Sequence record: PX994957.1
Strand: one strand, 5' to 3'
DNA length: 64,000 nucleotides
DNA from: a phage
Each line of letters starts with the position of its first letter. Position 1 is the stretch's first letter. Shown here in pieces: positions 1,974-63,174 of the stretch. The notes beneath the pieces are model-generated. The model had not been told where the DNA came from and searched no databases. It saw only the letters and a program-made list of their open reading frames with translations. Position numbers and translations under genes: made by a program.

Positions 1974-2003
1974 ATAATATCACAACTCTACCGTAAAGTA
2001 AAC
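1974..2003 (-). promoter_or_regulatory. sigma70-type early promoter (GTTTAC -35, TATTAT -10) flanked by GTAGAG/CTCTAC palindrome
   Basis: minus strand reads GTTTAC-N18-TATTAT upstream of ORF start 1944. Confidence 0.55.
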
Positions 2004-5246: not shown

Positions 5247-5277
5247 CATAAAGTCCTCATGTTATGTCAGTAAGACT

Positions 5278-5307
5278 ACTATAACACAACACGAGGGACT
5301 TGTAAAC
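5278..5307 (-). promoter_or_regulatory. sigma70-type early promoter upstream of alc
   Basis: minus strand GTTTAC-N17-TTATAGT. Confidence 0.5.
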
Positions 5308-5310
5308 AGC

Positions 5311-6898
<1,588 letters not shown>

Positions 6899-13087: not shown

Positions 13088-13420
13088 TTAAAAAGGATCA
13101 GGAACATATCCACTAGCTTTAATCATTTTAACTAATGTTACCATTCCTTTGTTAACTGCTTGTGAGATTTCATCAAAAACTTCATCATTAAAAAGTTCTA
13201 GCACACCCTTCTGAACTTTTAATTTACAGCCAACAATTTCGTCATCGCCTATAGTAAATTCATTACCGCCAATTCCACCGAAAAACTTAATTACCCCAGT
13301 TAACTGTTTTCCACGAGAATATGGGTCATGTGATAAAGTAATATGAGTCACCCCAGGTACAGTTTTAAATTGACAGCGAATATTTACTTGTGAAATTCCA
13401 GTTACATGAATGTCAGACAT
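13088..13420 (-). CDS. hypothetical protein, 110 aa (frd.2 position)
   Basis: ORF track. Confidence 0.55.
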   Translation of the reverse strand: MSDIHVTGISQVNIRCQFKTVPGVTHITLSHDPYSRGKQLTGVIKFFGGIGGNEFTIGDDEIVGCKLKVQKGVLELFNDEVFDEISQAVNKGMVTLVKMIKASGYVPDPF

Positions 13421-13673: not shown

Positions 13674-13782
13674 TTTATTCTCCTTAGCAAGCTTTAATCA
13701 AAAGATATAAACAGACCAACATAACTGCTGCCATAATATAAGGTGCGAACATTTTCTTTTCTCCATTAGTTTTGATAGGGTA

Positions 13783-13812
13783 ATAGTATCACACTACTAC
13801 CCTTCTGTAAAC
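13783..13812 (-). promoter_or_regulatory. sigma70-type early promoter
   Basis: minus strand GTTTAC-N18-GATACTAT. Confidence 0.5.
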
Positions 13813-14562: not shown

Positions 14563-14588
14563 AAAAAAAGGGGACCCTAGAGGTCCCC
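14563..14588 (-). terminator. rho-independent terminator downstream of gene 32
   Basis: GGGGACC-CUAGA-GGUCCCC hairpin followed by U7 on minus strand. Confidence 0.8.
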
Positions 14589-30538: not shown

Positions 30539-31174
30539 TCACAGTTCAGATGCTACAGTGATTACAGCTTCAATGTTTTCTGCCGAGCGTTTAATGTCAA
30601 GATACACATTACCGTTTTTAGCGATTTTACATGACATTCCGATATCAGTAAATTTCTGAATATGATGTTCCATCATTTTGTATCCAAAAATTCGCATATT
30701 TCCATTGTTGTTAATTTCAAAATTACGAATTCCGTGAGTACGTTTTTCTAAAATAGCGAGATAGTTACTACGATAAGTTTCAACCTTTTTAAGAACAAAT
30801 CCATTTTCATCTAAAAGTTTTAACATGAGGTCTTTATCTTCTTCCATATCAGAAGTAATTTCGCGAGCTTTACGAGTTGCTCGTTTTTTCAGTAGTTCCG
30901 GAGCATTTTCCTGTGCGTATAAAGTTGCTGCATTTGAAATAATATCCTGAGCTTCACCAGTAATGATTAATCCATCACCTGATTTCTCCACCAGGCCTTT
31001 TTTAATCAACACCCCAATATTACTATTAACTACTGCGTTACCTAAATCTGGATGCACCTCACGAACTTCTGCAGCTGTAATGAAATCTTTCTTAGCAATA
31101 GTAATTAAAATCGCAGCAGTTTTTTCATTCAGAACATCGTTAGAAGCTTTGATGATGTAAGTTACTTTAGACAT
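30539..31174 (-). CDS. motA: middle-transcription activator MotA (intact)
   Basis: 211 aa; matches recalled T4 MotA. Confidence 0.93.
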   Translation of the reverse strand: MSKVTYIIKASNDVLNEKTAAILITIAKKDFITAAEVREVHPDLGNAVVNSNIGVLIKKGLVEKSGDGLIITGEAQDIISNAATLYAQENAPELLKKRATRKAREITSDMEEDKDLMLKLLDENGFVLKKVETYRSNYLAILEKRTHGIRNFEINNNGNMRIFGYKMMEHHIQKFTDIGMSCKIAKNGNVYLDIKRSAENIEAVITVASEL

Positions 31175-31215
31175 TTTCTAATCTCCGTAATTCTGTATCA
31201 GTAGTTGATAGTTGT

Positions 31216-31245
31216 ATAGTACCACAGTATGCTTTGGTTGTAAAC
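31216..31245 (-). promoter_or_regulatory. sigma70-type early promoter for motA with conserved leader box
   Basis: minus strand GTTTAC-N18-TACTAT; leader box gtagttgatagttgtatagtacca. Confidence 0.6.
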
Positions 31246-31271
31246 CGTTTTGTGAAAAAAAAAATTAAAAT

Positions 31272-31297
31272 AAAAAAGGGAGAGCCTCGGCTCTCCC
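31272..31297 (-). terminator. rho-independent terminator (copy A)
   Basis: GGGAGAGCC-GAG-GCUCUCCC followed by U6 on minus strand. Confidence 0.7.
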
Positions 31298-31302
31298 TAA
31301 AA

Positions 31303-31452
31303 TTACTGCATGACTGTGATAACTGTCATGATAACACGTTGAATTCCGAACGCAAGAAGACCTCCTGCTACGGCTGGAACAACACCTAAACCCGCCAGTA
31401 AAATGCTACCGGATACTAATGCAGCGCTTGTAATACCTATGAATGGACTCAT
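31303..31452 (-). CDS. small hydrophobic membrane protein, 49 aa (copy A)
   Basis: own translation MSPFIGITSAALVSG...; ATG overlaps upstream stop (ATGA). Confidence 0.5.
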   Translation of the reverse strand: MSPFIGITSAALVSGSILLAGLGVVPAVAGGLLAFGIQRVIMTVITVMQ

Positions 31453-32174
31453 TTGATTTCCTCTAAATCTTTAGTGTATTCGGTAACTACATTAGTAGTT
31501 TTCCAATATTCGTTTTCTTCTTTCTTAGCTTTAGCTTCTTCAGCAAGTTTCTTTGCTTCGTCGGAAGTCATATGAAAAATATTCATTCCAACTAGTTTAT
31601 CAACATAAGAAGAATACATATCGATTTTCGAAAGTTCTTCGGTCAGTTCTTTGCGAGTTTTACCCTGCACAACGATTTCACCTGAAATTACTTTCTTAAT
31701 GAAATGTGCCTTGGCAAAGGCTAAACGAAAAGCTGACTCAGTTTCTTTGATTTTGTTATCAATTCGTTTTTGGACATAAGTTTTACGAACTTCAACAAAG
31801 TCTTTAATTAAATCAAGTTTTAACATGAGGTCTTTATCTTCTTCCATATCAGAAGTAATTTCGCGAGCTTTACGAGTTGCTCGTTTTTTCAGTAGTTCCG
31901 GAGCATTTTCCTGTGCGTATAAAGTTGCTGCATTTGAAATAATATCCTGAGCTTCACCAGTAATGATTAATCCATCACCTGATTTCTCCACCAGGCCTTT
32001 TTTAATCAACACCCCAATATTACTATTAACTACTGCGTTACCTAAATCTGGATGCACCTCACGAACTTCTGCAGCTGTAATGAAATCTTTCTTAGCAATA
32101 GTAATTAAAATCGCAGCAGTTTTTTCATTCAGAACATCGTTAGAAGCTTTGATGATGTAAGTTACTTTAGACAT
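31449..32174 (-). CDS. chimeric ORF: MotA residues 1-120 fused in frame to gp52 residues 322-442
   Basis: 241-aa ORF; N-terminal half identical to motA, C-terminal half identical to the gene 52 3' end; lies on the duplication junction 31816/31817. Confidence 0.8.
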   Translation of the reverse strand: MSKVTYIIKASNDVLNEKTAAILITIAKKDFITAAEVREVHPDLGNAVVNSNIGVLIKKGLVEKSGDGLIITGEAQDIISNAATLYAQENAPELLKKRATRKAREITSDMEEDKDLMLKLDLIKDFVEVRKTYVQKRIDNKIKETESAFRLAFAKAHFIKKVISGEIVVQGKTRKELTEELSKIDMYSSYVDKLVGMNIFHMTSDEAKKLAEEAKAKKEENEYWKTTNVVTEYTKDLEEIK

Positions 32175-32215
32175 TTTCTAATCTCCGTAATTCTGTATCA
32201 GTAGTTGATAGTTGT

Positions 32216-32245
32216 ATAGTACCACAGTATGCTTTGGTTGTAAAC
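32216..32245 (-). promoter_or_regulatory. duplicate copy of the motA early promoter, now upstream of the chimeric ORF
   Basis: identical to 31216-31245. Confidence 0.6.
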
Positions 32246-32271
32246 CGTTTTGTGAAAAAAAAAATTAAAAT

Positions 32272-32297
32272 AAAAAAGGGAGAGCCTCGGCTCTCCC
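32272..32297 (-). terminator. rho-independent terminator (copy B)
   Basis: identical to 31272-31297. Confidence 0.7.
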
Positions 32298-32302
32298 TAA
32301 AA

Positions 32303-32452
32303 TTACTGCATGACTGTGATAACTGTCATGATAACACGTTGAATTCCGAACGCAAGAAGACCTCCTGCTACGGCTGGAACAACACCTAAACCCGCCAGTA
32401 AAATGCTACCGGATACTAATGCAGCGCTTGTAATACCTATGAATGGACTCAT
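32303..32452 (-). CDS. small hydrophobic membrane protein, 49 aa (copy B)
   Basis: identical to 31303-31452. Confidence 0.5.
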   Translation of the reverse strand: MSPFIGITSAALVSGSILLAGLGVVPAVAGGLLAFGIQRVIMTVITVMQ

Positions 32453-33777
32453 TTGATTTCCTCTAAATCTTTAGTGTATTCGGTAACTACATTAGTAGTT
32501 TTCCAATATTCGTTTTCTTCTTTCTTAGCTTTAGCTTCTTCAGCAAGTTTCTTTGCTTCGTCGGAAGTCATATGAAAAATATTCATTCCAACTAGTTTAT
32601 CAACATAAGAAGAATACATATCGATTTTCGAAAGTTCTTCGGTCAGTTCTTTGCGAGTTTTACCCTGCACAACGATTTCACCTGAAATTACTTTCTTAAT
32701 GAAATGTGCCTTGGCAAAGGCTAAACGAAAAGCTGACTCAGTTTCTTTGATTTTGTTATCAATTCGTTTTTGGACATAAGTTTTACGAACTTCAACAAAG
32801 TCTTTAATTAAATCAACTACGTTATCGTAAACTTGTAGTTTTCCTTTCTCATTAATAACCGTAATATTCTGAGAACGACGCTCAATCAACCCGAAGTCTT
32901 TCATAATTTTTGCATGGCGTTCTTCTTCGTTATCGCTCAAAGAATATTCTTTACGGAATTTAACTTTGAATCCAAAACCATGCTCACCACAAGCATCATC
33001 CCATGTAATGAAGCCTTTATCTTCAAGTGGGTCTAAGATTTTACTCACATAAGTTTCACGATCATACTTATACGGAATCTCAGTGATATGCATTTGAGTT
33101 CGTGAAGTAAACTTATATGTTCCACGAATTTCATATTGGCCATCAATCTCAACGACTTCACCACGAAATTCTGGGAATTCTACCTTCGGTTTAGTTACTT
33201 TCTTTCCTTGAAGAGCTTGTAATACAGCTTTCTTAACAGAAGAAACACTATGAGGAAGAATGTAAGTTGCATAACCAGTTGCAATACCGGAAACACCATT
33301 AAGAAGAACAGTAGGAATAATAGGCAAATAGAAAGCAGGCGGAATGTGTTCTTTATCTTGATGTACCGGAGCATATTCAGTATCTTTATATACGTTATAG
33401 AAATTTTTACTTACACGAGCAAAAATATAACGACTTGCTGCTGCTTTTTGGACGGTACGAGAACCAAAGTTTCCTTGACCATCTAACAGAGGAAAATTAT
33501 TATTCCAAGTGTTAGCCATCAAAGCACCTGCGTCTTGCGCAGAGTTTTCACCATGATGATATCCAAGGTCCGCTACACCACCTGCAATAGAAGCGAGTTT
33601 GTGAAACTTATCTTTATTTCCTCGTGCCAAATCAAGAGCTCGAGCAATAACAAATCGTTGAACTGGCTTAAATCCGTCAATCATATTTGGAATGGCACGA
33701 TTTTCAACCGTGTACATAGCATAAGCCAATGCTTCATTATCAATGATACTTTTTAAATCGCGATTATTCAGTTGCAT
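32449..33777 (-). CDS. 52: DNA topoisomerase II medium subunit gp52 (GyrA-like, intact)
   Basis: 442 aa; catalytic-Tyr region AASRYI; T4 synteny. Confidence 0.93.
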   Translation of the reverse strand: MQLNNRDLKSIIDNEALAYAMYTVENRAIPNMIDGFKPVQRFVIARALDLARGNKDKFHKLASIAGGVADLGYHHGENSAQDAGALMANTWNNNFPLLDGQGNFGSRTVQKAAASRYIFARVSKNFYNVYKDTEYAPVHQDKEHIPPAFYLPIIPTVLLNGVSGIATGYATYILPHSVSSVKKAVLQALQGKKVTKPKVEFPEFRGEVVEIDGQYEIRGTYKFTSRTQMHITEIPYKYDRETYVSKILDPLEDKGFITWDDACGEHGFGFKVKFRKEYSLSDNEEERHAKIMKDFGLIERRSQNITVINEKGKLQVYDNVVDLIKDFVEVRKTYVQKRIDNKIKETESAFRLAFAKAHFIKKVISGEIVVQGKTRKELTEELSKIDMYSSYVDKLVGMNIFHMTSDEAKKLAEEAKAKKEENEYWKTTNVVTEYTKDLEEIK

Positions 33778-35323: not shown

Positions 35324-35350
35324 TTTGTGTTCCTCCGTAGTTGATAGTTG

Positions 35351-35381
35351 TATAGTACCACAGAGGAACAGTCTTGTAAAC
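35351..35381 (-). promoter_or_regulatory. sigma70-type early promoter with conserved leader box
   Basis: minus strand GTTTAC-N18-TACTAT. Confidence 0.55.
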
Positions 35382-35838: not shown

Positions 35839-35869
35839 TATATTACCACAGTCCTTGTGGTATGTAAAC
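35839..35869 (-). promoter_or_regulatory. sigma70-type early promoter with CCACA-N5-TGTGG palindrome between -35 and -10
   Basis: minus strand GTTTAC ... CCACAAGGACTGTGG TAATAT. Confidence 0.55.
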
Positions 35870-36704: not shown

Positions 36705-36723
36705 AATTCACCTTAAAACAAAA

Positions 36724-36735
36724 GGGCCGAAGCCC
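36724..36735 (-). terminator. stem-loop GGGC-CGAA-GCCC flanked by U-runs (possibly bidirectional)
   Basis: perfect hairpin read in sequence. Confidence 0.5.
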
Positions 36736-36740
36736 TTATT

Positions 36741-36935: not shown

Positions 36936-36963
36936 AATTTTCCTTAGTTAAGGGCCGAAGCCC

Positions 36964-37902
36964 TTATTTAAATTGTTCAGTAACGTCTTCAATTACTTCG
37001 TATTGGCAGGTACGCATTTTAGCGTCGTTGTAATCAATCGGAATTGATACTACATCACGAGGATGAACTTTAACTTTTACAACTCGGCTGGTTGAACCAC
37101 CGAAGTGACGAATATAAGATTTAGAACACACATGCAGACCACGAGAACAAGTTTGTGTATCATCGTCATTCACACGAGTACGCGGCATTTTAACTACTTT
37201 ACCAGGACTGTTATCAAAGGTATTTGAGTGACAGTCAAAGTAATTGCTGCGAACTACTTTCCAAGCATAGAAGTAACCATCTTCTGTAATTTCAATATCG
37301 TTTGCTACCAAGAAATCAAAAAGTCGAGATACCGCTTTCTGGCTTGGGTTTTCCAGCAGATTTTCCAAGAACGGAAAATAAACTTCAAAGTTTTCGCCTT
37401 TTTCCATCGAATCAAGAATACGATCAACCAAACCAGACCGCAATTCAATATTTTGATAGAATAAGCTTCCACCTTCAATTCGAACATCGCCGGAAATATA
37501 TTTTTCAACAGCGCGACGAACATTAATTTTTTGTGCCGCTTCTTCCAGCTTATCCGCTACAAGCAGATTGAGAATTTCCTGGAAGTTTGAATGAGTATTA
37601 GGTGTTGCATTATAAGTTACACCATCGACAGTAATCGAAATGAATTTTTTAGATGCATTCCAAATAATGTCAGATTTAGTAACTGGAGCAATAACTGCAT
37701 CGCTATTAACTTTAACTGTAATATCACCGCTAATAGTAACTTTAGAGCGTTTAGCTTCTTCAGCATTTTTCAAAACACGACGGATTGTATCAACCGATAC
37801 ACCTTGCCAATCAGCCAATTCCTGCTGAGTATAATTACCGCTTGAATACAGTTTAACAATTTCAGCTTGTTCGTTTTTGGTCAGGCATTTAATATTGTAC
37901 AT
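36964..37902 (-). CDS. rIIB: rapid-lysis protein rIIB
   Basis: 312 aa; N-terminus MYNIKCLTKNEQAEIV matches recalled T4 rIIB. Confidence 0.93.
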   Translation of the reverse strand: MYNIKCLTKNEQAEIVKLYSSGNYTQQELADWQGVSVDTIRRVLKNAEEAKRSKVTISGDITVKVNSDAVIAPVTKSDIIWNASKKFISITVDGVTYNATPNTHSNFQEILNLLVADKLEEAAQKINVRRAVEKYISGDVRIEGGSLFYQNIELRSGLVDRILDSMEKGENFEVYFPFLENLLENPSQKAVSRLFDFLVANDIEITEDGYFYAWKVVRSNYFDCHSNTFDNSPGKVVKMPRTRVNDDDTQTCSRGLHVCSKSYIRHFGGSTSRVVKVKVHPRDVVSIPIDYNDAKMRTCQYEVIEDVTEQFK

Positions 37903-40330: not shown

Positions 40331-40360
40331 ATTATACCACATCCTTGTGGTAAAGTAAAC
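40331..40360 (-). promoter_or_regulatory. sigma70-type early promoter with extended -10 (TGTGGTATAAT) and CCACA-N4-TGTGG palindrome
   Basis: minus strand GTTTAC-N17-TATAAT. Confidence 0.65.
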
Positions 40361-44586: not shown

Positions 44587-44630
44587 AGTTATCTCTCACT
44601 TGTTAAAAAGATTTTATACTCCACAGGACC

Positions 44631-44660
44631 ATTATACTCTGGTCCCAAGAGTTTGTAAAC
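44631..44660 (-). promoter_or_regulatory. sigma70-type early promoter with GGACC palindrome around -10
   Basis: minus strand GTTTAC-N18-TATAAT. Confidence 0.55.
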
Positions 44661-45705: not shown

Positions 45706-45730
45706 TTTATTATCCTCAGTAGCTATGGTG

Positions 45731-45762
45731 TTATAATACCACAACTAACCGAGGAAGTAAAC
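45731..45762 (-). promoter_or_regulatory. sigma70-type early promoter
   Basis: minus strand GTTTAC-N18-TATTATAAC. Confidence 0.5.
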
Positions 45763-50280: not shown

Positions 50281-50900
50281 TCAACTACCTCAATATCATA
50301 AACTTTAAATGTTCCAAATGAATCGTGTAATTTTTCTTTTGAAATAGAAGTTATTTTATACTTTCCAATTGGAATCATCCATTCTTGTTCACGCACAATC
50401 ATCATTAAGTTATCAGTTCTTTCTGAATCTAACCCGTCAGTATCTTCATACGTGTACTTAAACTCAGTATTAGGAGAAGAAAGTATAATATCGCTGATAT
50501 GGTCAGAATAATTAAAAGCTTTATCAGTTTTTAAGCGAAAAATTATTTCAGTGAAATATTCAGCATAAGAAAAAGAACACGCTGTATGCAAACTAGTAGT
50601 AAATGAATCTACCCTGTTCGTTGAAAACACTTCTCCAACTTGTAAATCTTTAATGAGTTCTTTTGTCGATTTTGATATACCACGATATAATTGATAAGGC
50701 GATTTAATTAAATGCTTTTTAATGATTTTATTCAACTGTCTGTGAAGAGCTTCATTCTTTTTGGCTTCCATACATTGCCAAAGAACAGACTGCTCAAAGT
50801 CAGTAAATTTTTCACAGACCTTTTTATACATATCATATTGAAAATCAACGCTTTCAGCTTTTATAGATAACTGTTCAACATCTGCAAGATTAATAATCAT
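50277..50900 (-). CDS. modB: ADP-ribosyltransferase ModB
   Basis: 207 aa; T4 synteny. Confidence 0.8.
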   Translation of the reverse strand: MIINLADVEQLSIKAESVDFQYDMYKKVCEKFTDFEQSVLWQCMEAKKNEALHRQLNKIIKKHLIKSPYQLYRGISKSTKELIKDLQVGEVFSTNRVDSFTTSLHTACSFSYAEYFTEIIFRLKTDKAFNYSDHISDIILSSPNTEFKYTYEDTDGLDSERTDNLMMIVREQEWMIPIGKYKITSISKEKLHDSFGTFKVYDIEVVE

Positions 50901-50927
50901 GATAGCCTCCGTATACTTCAGAAGCTA

Positions 50928-50956
50928 TCATATCATCGTTAGAAAGGAAAGTAAAC
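50928..50956 (-). promoter_or_regulatory. sigma70-type early promoter upstream of modB
   Basis: minus strand GTTTAC-N18-TATGAT. Confidence 0.5.
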
Positions 50957-53068: not shown

Positions 53069-53092
53069 AAAAAGGACTCCCTAGGGAGTCCT
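53069..53092 (-). terminator. rho-independent terminator downstream of soc
   Basis: perfect palindrome AGGACUCCC-UA-GGGAGUCCU followed by U-run on minus strand. Confidence 0.75.
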
Positions 53093-57291: not shown

Positions 57292-57321
57292 AACAATCTC
57301 CTCATTTAACCAACAAGACTA

Positions 57322-57350
57322 CTATACCATAGTCTTGTCAGTTTGTAAAC
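57322..57350 (-). promoter_or_regulatory. sigma70-type early promoter with CAAGACTA/TAGTCTTG palindrome over the -10
   Basis: minus strand GTTTAC-N18-TATAGT. Confidence 0.55.
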
Positions 57351-63071: not shown

Positions 63072-63158
63072 AGTTTTGTGAAAATTTTTTAGGGAATTTT
63101 AAATGTCCAGAATCATCTGTTTTTCATAAGTATAGATTTATATTACTTGTATGAAAAA

Positions 63159-63174
63159 GGGACCCGGAGGTCCC
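63159..63174 (-). terminator. rho-independent terminator downstream of gene 43
   Basis: GGGACC-UCCG-GGUCCC followed by U5 on minus strand. Confidence 0.7.

Follow-up and report, generated by a model that had tools for sequence, protein, structure and literature searches.

Stem-loops superimposed on early promoters of a T4-like phage: probable composite modules acting on read-through RNA

What is a perfect inverted repeat doing between the -35 and -10 elements of a strong early promoter? The question is raised by positions 40331-40360 of a 64,000-nucleotide stretch of phage DNA (PX994957.1; the window below is this whole stretch), where the initial annotation noticed a CCACA/TGTGG palindrome in the spacer of a predicted early promoter, listed similar palindromes in or over the -10 of other promoters, and offered operator sites or RNA 5' stem-loops as explanations. 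The window belongs to a Tequatrovirus: a 3-kb piece of it shares 99.2% identity with Escherichia phage vB_EcoM-Sa45lw and 95-99% with some 490 further T4-like genomes. It extends from rIII via rIIB and rIIA as far as gene 43, the early genes lying on the minus strand. A search for related loci based on RIIA yielded just five, all nearly identical and of no use for covariation, and comparisons were instead drawn from pattern scans and from chosen genomes of other genera.

The promoters themselves are of a well-defined class. Scanning the window for GTTTAC-N16-19-TAnnnT gave 22 matches (3.8 expected), 20 of them on the minus strand, and 19 have the canonical form GTTTAC-N18-TAnnnT, preceded by AT-rich tracts. 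Their consensus, tgTGgTAttAT, contains a TGn extended -10 (TG at -15/-14 before TAnnnT), in agreement with the description of T4 early promoters as being of the UP/-35/TGn/-10 type (PMC2988021). The original proposal that the 3' arm TGTGGTA forms the extended -10 agrees with this consensus (tgTGgTA). Since TGTGG(TA) is thus what any promoter of the class tends to carry, only the complementary 5' arm is an added, informative feature. The T4 GenBank records NC_000866 and AF158101 carry no promoter annotations, and Rfam yielded zero family matches across the whole window. One of the promoters, that upstream of motA, occurs twice (31245 and 32245) together with its upstream terminator, as a consequence of an exact tandem duplication of 1000 bp (30815-31814 and 31815-32814, with an identity run of 1002 bp). 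Sa45lw and T4 have a single copy of this region (window 30815-32814), and such a round length suggests that the duplication arose in assembly or construction and is not biological.

The palindromes listed initially do exist, each where it had been placed or within a few bases of it, and all are read on the minus strand. The early promoter upstream of rIIA.1 (40331-40360, minus strand; -35 GTTTAC at 40355-40360, -10 TATAAT at 40331-40336) reads GTTTAC-tt-TACCACA-agga-TGTGGTA-TAAT from 40360 to 40331 and is identical in T4; the G of its -35 doubles as the final base of the gene 39 TAG stop. Its spacer hairpin, UACCACA-AGGA-UGUGGUA (40335-40352, minus), has 7 bp and a predicted energy of -8.2 kcal/mol (z = -2.4), and its 3' arm consists of the TGn element and the initial two bases of the -10. 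The early promoter downstream of denB (35840-35869, minus; -10 TAATAT), whose -35 lies 18 nt downstream of the denB stop, reads GTTTAC-a-TACCACA-aggac-TGTGGTA-ATAT from 35869 to 35840 and holds the hairpin UACCACA-AGGAC-UGUGGUA (35844-35862, minus; 7 bp, -8.3 kcal/mol, z = -2.1); the T4 counterpart has CGTGG, which leaves a stem of 6 bp. Both focal hairpins are short, with only four G-C pairs among their 7 bp, and both are perfect Watson-Crick palindromes, so that by themselves they have no strand polarity. Neither touches the Shine-Dalgarno (SD) sequence. A third case lies after the denA stop and upstream of rnlA, in a candidate middle-type promoter with a MotA-box-like TGCTT (6462-6487, minus): it reads TGCTT-CCACA-tggag-TGTGG-TACTAT from 6487 to 6462, that is, TGCTT-N15-TACTAT with a TGn. 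Its hairpin CCACA-UGGAG-UGUGG (6468-6482) folds weakly (z = -1.1), and the published table of identified middle promoters of T4 (PMC2988021) does not list the candidate.

Two simple readings of the focal hairpins were dropped. The consensus terminator scan of the window did not call them as intrinsic terminators, and no U-tract follows the stem (UAUAAU... follows it; tails UAUAAUUAAUU and AUAUACAACUAU). The 5' arm might also be an opposite-strand promoter of the form TGTGGTAnnnT, which fits only the 40360 case (TAAAGT) and by inspection fails at 35869 and in most other members of the family.

The hairpins described as lying over the -10 are likewise present (1965-1992, 44618-44652 and 57308-57343), and the arms are longer than was claimed: 7 bp in the two focal promoters, and 12-15 bp in the others when G.U pairs are included. 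The promoter of dmd (57350) stands directly after the gene 41 stop, and its hairpin (57308-57343, minus; arms ACAAGACTA/TAGTCTTGT) spans the -10 with 15 bp and -18.9 kcal/mol, the z of the 50-nt fold being -5.5; relative to T4 it shows two differences, both neutral for pairing (A-U to G.U and G.U to G-C). The motB promoter (44660) has a -10-spanning hairpin with arms GGGACCA/TGGTCCT (44618-44652, minus; -17.4 kcal/mol, z -3.9), the promoter between cd.3 and cd.2 (2003) one with arms GGTAGAG/CTCTACC (1965-1992, minus; -16.3 kcal/mol, z -5.0; 12 bp, three of them G.U), and the promoter after frd.2 (13812) a fourth (13769-13812, minus; -16.6 kcal/mol, z -3.4). The cd.3-cd.2 hairpin coincides with a curiosity of the T4 record: 14 nt (T4 133300-133313, positions 13301-13314 of the T4 stretch used here, L005), orthologous to window 1979-1992, had previously been published inverted and complemented, and the revision is noted as 'correcting' the early promoter Pe133295. 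These 14 nt are exactly the loop between the GGTAGAG/CTCTACC arms, and the discrepancy reflects either a real flip between inverted repeats or a sequencing artefact of the hairpin.

A further set of four hairpins reaches into the translation signals of the next gene. They would mask an SD, through pairing with the spacer or the -10 region: a long hairpin joins the spacer of the alc promoter (5307) to the alc SD GAGGA (5251-5301, minus; -24.4 kcal/mol); after dexA (45762), the spacer UUCCUC pairs with the downstream SD GAGGA (45713-45755, minus; -23.7 kcal/mol); at 35381, the spacer GUUCCUC pairs with the SD GGAGGAAC (35328-35370, minus; -20.2 kcal/mol); and at 50956 the -10 region pairs with the SD and AUG of modB (50892-50937, minus; -20.8 kcal/mol). 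The 50-nt folds give -23.1 kcal/mol (z -5.6) for 45762, -12.8 (z -2.9) for 5307 and -12.5 (z -2.2) for 35381, and longer fold windows strengthen the last two, to -24.4 and -20.2 kcal/mol, respectively.

In all these promoters the 5' arm lies upstream of the expected start site, which was inferred to lie some 7 nt past the -10. One of the two explanations initially offered, a stem-loop at the 5' end of the RNA made from the promoter itself, is therefore rejected, and the hairpin can form only when transcription arrives from a promoter further upstream. What stands of that explanation is a role at the level of RNA; the other one, an operator, is poorly supported, as discussed below.

The initial annotation had named beforehand a comparison with shuffled controls as the test that could overturn it, and the palindromes are enriched over such controls in the window and in wider sets. 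Within the window, the 18 non-redundant GTTTAC-N18-TAnnnT promoters were set against column-permuted versions, in which the base composition at each position is preserved. In the real promoters the longest inverted repeat averages 5.33, against 4.56 +/- 0.22 in these controls (n=18; p<0.001); arms of at least 6 bp occur in 8 promoters where 2.7 are expected (n=18, column-permuted; p=0.001), and arms of at least 7 bp in 4 where 0.7 are expected (n=18, column-permuted; p=0.003). Against random genomic 50-mers, the p-values for the window promoter palindromes are 0.004-0.014. The arm sequences vary from one window promoter to the next (TACCACA, GGTAGAG, ACAAGACTA and so on). The enrichment also has a polarity. 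Among 78 dereplicated promoters from outside the window, unselected for palindromes, the mean fold of the sense strand is 7.0 sd below the column-permuted mean and that of the antisense strand 3.4 sd below the control mean; in the window, the mean fold z is -1.44 for sense and -0.61 for antisense. Antisense folds are weaker because G.U pairs lengthen the stems in sense RNA only.

The presence of a hairpin is associated with the closeness of the preceding gene. When the promoter lies within 25 nt of a same-strand upstream stop codon, an embedded hairpin of -8 kcal/mol or better is found in 10 of 11 cases, against none of the seven remaining window promoters (Fisher p=0.00025). Among these seven, four (63071, 53058, 32245 with its duplicate 31245, and 14537) have a canonical GC-rich hairpin and T-run just upstream of the UP element, and two (28780 and 17839) have no same-strand upstream gene. 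For promoter 53058, itself without an embedded hairpin, this terminator is at 53069-53092 (minus), and the equivalent upstream terminators are at 63154-63174, 32272-32297, 31272-31297 and 14563-14588. Terminator-like sequences of another sort occur in the rIIB-denB region, where hairpins with UUCG/GAAG-type tetraloops (36722-36737 and 36949-36966; AAGGGC-TTCG-GCCCTT) are flanked by T-runs on both strands and look like bidirectional terminator-like elements. The association with stop codons holds more widely: in 97 dereplicated promoters from all fetched loci, unselected for palindromes, hairpins are found in 21 of the 46 near a stop and in 9 of the 51 others (p=0.004), and the mean energies are -9.6 and -6.0 kcal/mol, respectively (Mann-Whitney p=0.007).

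Could the focal palindromes be incidental, the promoters sharing nothing but a spacer copied from a common source? The focal promoters do have the 10-mer ACCACAAGGA in common, and copying of promoter/leader cassettes from gene to gene is evident. Unrelated genes are preceded by near-identical cassettes of this kind, in line with a shuffling of regulatory modules in cassette form. The alc cassette, for example (window 5251-5307, T4 L005 3041-3094), recurs in T4 at a second locus near alt, and a leader ACAACTATCAACTACTGATACGGATTTGGAGAATAAAATG after TACTAT is common to several promoters (leaders compared: 63071, 35869, 35381, 32245 and 14537). Chance combined with shared descent is nonetheless very unlikely, and is largely refuted by the controls. 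When IMG/VR was scanned for GTTTAC-N1-5-CCACA-N3-7-TGTGGTA, 77 stretches were recovered, corresponding to 43 distinct contexts, 34 of which have the 18-nt spacing and a TAnnnT. With non-complementary arms of equal composition, 6 (CAACC) and 1 (CCAAC) contexts of this kind were recovered, making the complementary arm 6 to 34 times commoner than scrambled arms in viral contigs. The stem, moreover, runs beyond the pattern searched for: among 28 dereplicated promoters, CCACA is preceded by A 20 times and by G 8 times, with C and T absent (p=3e-8), and the next base out is T in 22 of 28 (p=6e-5), so that the real element is U-R-CCACA / UGUGG-U-A with G.U allowed. The covariation of other hairpins, described below, and the association with upstream stops also argue against chance and descent.

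The same family bears on the operator hypothesis, in which a dimeric phage or host protein would bind TACCACA-N4-5-TGTGGTA and switch the promoters off or on. With half-sites about 11 bp apart, the geometry would suit a helix-turn-helix dimer; both the arms and the loop are conserved across several T4-like genera, in no fewer than 16 different gene contexts; and the shut-off of T4 early promoters is incompletely understood (PMC3014915). We nevertheless hold an operator to be highly improbable for several reasons: (i), the site is present in only 2 of the 19 window early promoters, the others having unrelated palindromes without a shared site. (ii), 8 of 28 cases have G for A in the 5' half-site and so lose the symmetry, and T4 has CGTGG at one site (the counterpart of 35869). 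(iii), the stems accept G.T(U) pairs and are lengthened by them, and such pairs suit sense-strand RNA alone. (iv), orthologous promoters keep a hairpin but swap its sequence and even its position and, (v), the presence of a hairpin follows the closeness of the upstream stop codon.

The CCACA family falls into two parts. The first comes from T4-like genera, where it occupies many gene contexts and where the end of a co-directional upstream ORF lies 2-19 nt before the -35 in all assessable cases. The second is made up of contigs from aquatic metagenomes. At least one of these, L065, encodes gp46/47-like, gp23-like and gp22-like proteins, which identifies it as a distant member of the T4 superfamily. 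In such distant aquatic contigs (L016, L019, L025, L028, L029, L036, L037, L039, L042, L064, L065, L078, L080 and L086 of the IMG/VR set), the promoters are of the form GTTTAC-N18-TATAAT with very short leaders (ATG about 6-15 nt after the -10). Many of them contain a CCACA-N3-4-TGTGG spacer hairpin, and within one orthologous series of aquatic promoters C-G, U.G and U-A are all seen at one stem position. In at least one distant contig, L086, a canonical terminator lies about 45 nt upstream of the hairpin promoter, so that little read-through RNA is expected there, which counts against a role in such RNA.

The aquatic contigs lend some weight to another alternative, a DNA-level promoter element. 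The spacer palindrome, or phased flexible CA/TG steps with a GGA near -20, would tune polymerase binding or melting independently of RNA. Several observations fit: polymerase contacts the 3' arm (TGn/-10), remote contigs of the T4 superfamily, whose leaders are very short, keep the CCACA/TGTGG design, and the focal hairpins are symmetric Watson-Crick palindromes. A spacer GGA (positions 13-18 after the start of the -35, about -23 to -18) is found in 5 of the 18 window promoters, among them the rnh promoter 17839, which has neither a same-strand upstream gene nor a strong hairpin. We still regard such an element as unlikely. Most early promoters lack it and yet fit the strong consensus, and the arm sequences differ freely among promoters. 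When CCAYA was allowed to face TRTGG, the promoter-like contexts among the matches listed (at least 120) divided into C-G 19, U.G 8, U-A 3 and C.A 2, a trend whose direction, within those matches, fits pairing in sense RNA but which falls short of significance (p=0.31) and is not taken as evidence of covariation; the G.U tolerance and the bias of U.G (8) over C.A (2) among them suit sense RNA, not duplex DNA.

Comparison with other genera weakens the case for a DNA element further, since hairpins are kept where the promoter is not and, it seems, where its -35 is not. After the gene 39 stop, which in the window merges into the rIIA.1 promoter, Mosigvirus has GCTCC-TTCG-GGAGC and a T-run without a promoter, annotated as a terminator in PhAPEC2. 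At the same stop, Serratia phage CBH8, Edwardsiella phage PEi20 and Gaprivervirus TH22 have unrelated hairpins of about 10 bp with the SD directly after, and the genera with an unrelated post-gene-39 hairpin and no promoter are Winklervirus, Kanagawavirus and Gaprivervirus. The hairpin also seems to persist across a change of -35. In contig L083, the promoter before a 374-aa ORF carries CCACAAGGATTGTGG with a GTTTAC -35; from its length and the presence of an alc-orthologous promoter about 1.2 kb downstream, we read this ORF as a putative rnlA. If it is rnlA, the hairpin has been kept while the -35 of the window and T4 is MotA-box-like, and the hairpin would not be tied to recognition of the -35.

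Elsewhere the promoter is kept and the hairpin is rebuilt. After denB, Mosigvirus phiEC1 retains the promoter with a hairpin that spans the -10 (TAGGACTAT/ATAGTCCTA), and TH22 has its -10 paired with the SD. The Mosigvirus orthologue of 45762 has entirely new arms, TTCTCCTCTGGTT/AACCAGAGGAGAA, that again join the spacer to the SD. Other stems have changed base by base. Across orthologues of the motB-promoter stem, 35 of 35 cells are paired (31-51% in slid controls), and 3 of the 7 pairs are altered on both sides (C-G to G-C, C-G to U-A and A-U to G-C). In five relatives, all 3 substitutions in the 35381 stem keep pairing through G.U, the loop being more variable, and in the L083 orthologue of the 1965-1992 hairpin the changes are A-U to G.U and U.G to U-A. 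The feature is thus real, enriched and evolutionarily maintained.

We think it fairly probable that these are composite modules of promoter and stem-loop, a T-even counterpart of the PeSL cassettes of RB49 and phi1, acting on read-through RNA. The genes of this phage are packed tightly, and an early promoter often begins at the same-strand upstream stop or within about 20 nt of it. With no separate place left for it between the genes, the intercistronic RNA hairpin would then be written into the promoter, with its 5' arm in the -35/-10 spacer. The 3' arm would take one of three forms, namely the TGn/-10 element (the CCACA...TGTGG pair), the first transcribed bases (the hairpins that span the -10) or the SD region of the next gene. 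As the promoter's own transcript would begin inside or after the hairpin, the structure would be present in read-through RNA only. There it may attenuate or pause read-through transcription, protect the 3' end of the upstream message or serve in processing; in the SD-paired cases, it would keep read-through RNA from being translated at the downstream gene and make that gene dependent on its own promoter.

The PeSL cassettes of RB49 and phi1 are the closest precedent. They were proposed to terminate or attenuate upstream transcription and to be copied between genes, and one PeSL stem-loop lowered the expression of a downstream reporter behind a strong promoter (Arbiol et al. 2010, PMC2839356). 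A part in recombination and in the shuffling of flanking genes also belongs to the PeSL concept. The likeness is one of layout: an early promoter of the sigma-70 type, strong and preceded by an AT-rich tract, is placed between an upstream stop and a downstream SD/ATG, and its stem-loop occupies the -35/-10 spacer, overlaps one of these elements or lies just outside them. The two differ in that PeSL stems are typically polyG/polyC, whereas those of the window are short, AT-richer and without sequence homology to them, and in that the window promoters are of the T4 GTTTAC/TGn type. The authors of the PeSL study regarded the T-even elements as analogues rather than homologues, with weaker, AT-richer stems, and mentioned internal-protein loci only (PMC2839356).

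For the SD-paired hairpins, a second precedent is found in T4 itself, where promoters lying within hairpins control the ribosome binding sites of e, soc, 49 and I-TevI: the short transcripts are translatable (Uzan & Miller 2010, PMC3014915), and only the longer read-through transcripts fold and stay translationally silent (PMC3014915). The hairpins at 5251-5301, 45713-45755, 35328-35370 and 50892-50937 have the same design, with the 5' arm at the promoter and the 3' arm at the SD/AUG. The published nested promoters are late, the early read-through RNA being silent, whereas those of the window are early promoters of the GTTTAC/TGn type. The resemblance to intrinsic terminators is more partial: the hairpin comes right after a stop, and a true UUCG terminator occupies the gene 39 position in Mosigvirus, but the focal hairpins have no U-run and fail the consensus scan. 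Finally, CT-rich (anti-SD) motifs within sigma-54 promoters are reported to provide translational insulation (bioRxiv 10.1101/086108). There too, an in-promoter sequence lowers downstream expression from read-through transcripts, although the promoter class and the organisms are different.

One property of the focal family is left over. The loop of the spacer hairpin is nearly invariant in T4-like phages, NGGA across different stems, whereas the aquatic relatives have variable A/T loops. AGGA is found in 12 contexts, and TGGA, CGGA, AGGAC, AGGAT, UGGAG and AAGGAA also occur; the stems that bear GGA are CCACA/TGTGG, AACCA/TGGTT, ATCCA/TGGAT and ACACC/GGTGT. In the window, GGA loops lie at 40342-40345, 35851-35855 and 6473-6477, and others are at about 15446 in locus L011, at the motB promoter in L012 and L011, and at 2698 in L083. 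A conserved (A)AGGA loop on different stems is unexplained by a purely structural hairpin. For the T4 endoribonuclease RegB, GGA is the minimal target, and the enzyme alone cuts well if the GGA is unpaired and the fourth base constrained (PMC3014915); AAGGA is, besides, SD-like. The hairpin might accordingly be a display element that presents an unpaired GGA as a dedicated site of cleavage or ribosome capture, an idea that we rate as distinctly unlikely; if it is true, display hairpins would cut or mark read-through early transcripts exactly where the next transcription unit begins. The GGA loop may equally stem from a sequence preference at the level of the promoter.

Composite modules of promoter and stem-loop would not overturn the current understanding; they would extend the logic of the PeSL cassettes and of the T4 promoters within hairpins to ordinary T-even early promoters. 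Promoters and intercistronic RNA hairpins would be routinely superimposed in T-even phages, and spacers considered 'neutral' would thus be under selection at the RNA level. The point is relevant to the annotation of promoters and terminators in many T4-like genomes, and to the synthetic re-use of these very strong promoters, with which a built-in insulator would come along. For the reading of transcription maps, it would mean that the expression of a gene from read-through RNA and from its own promoter can differ.
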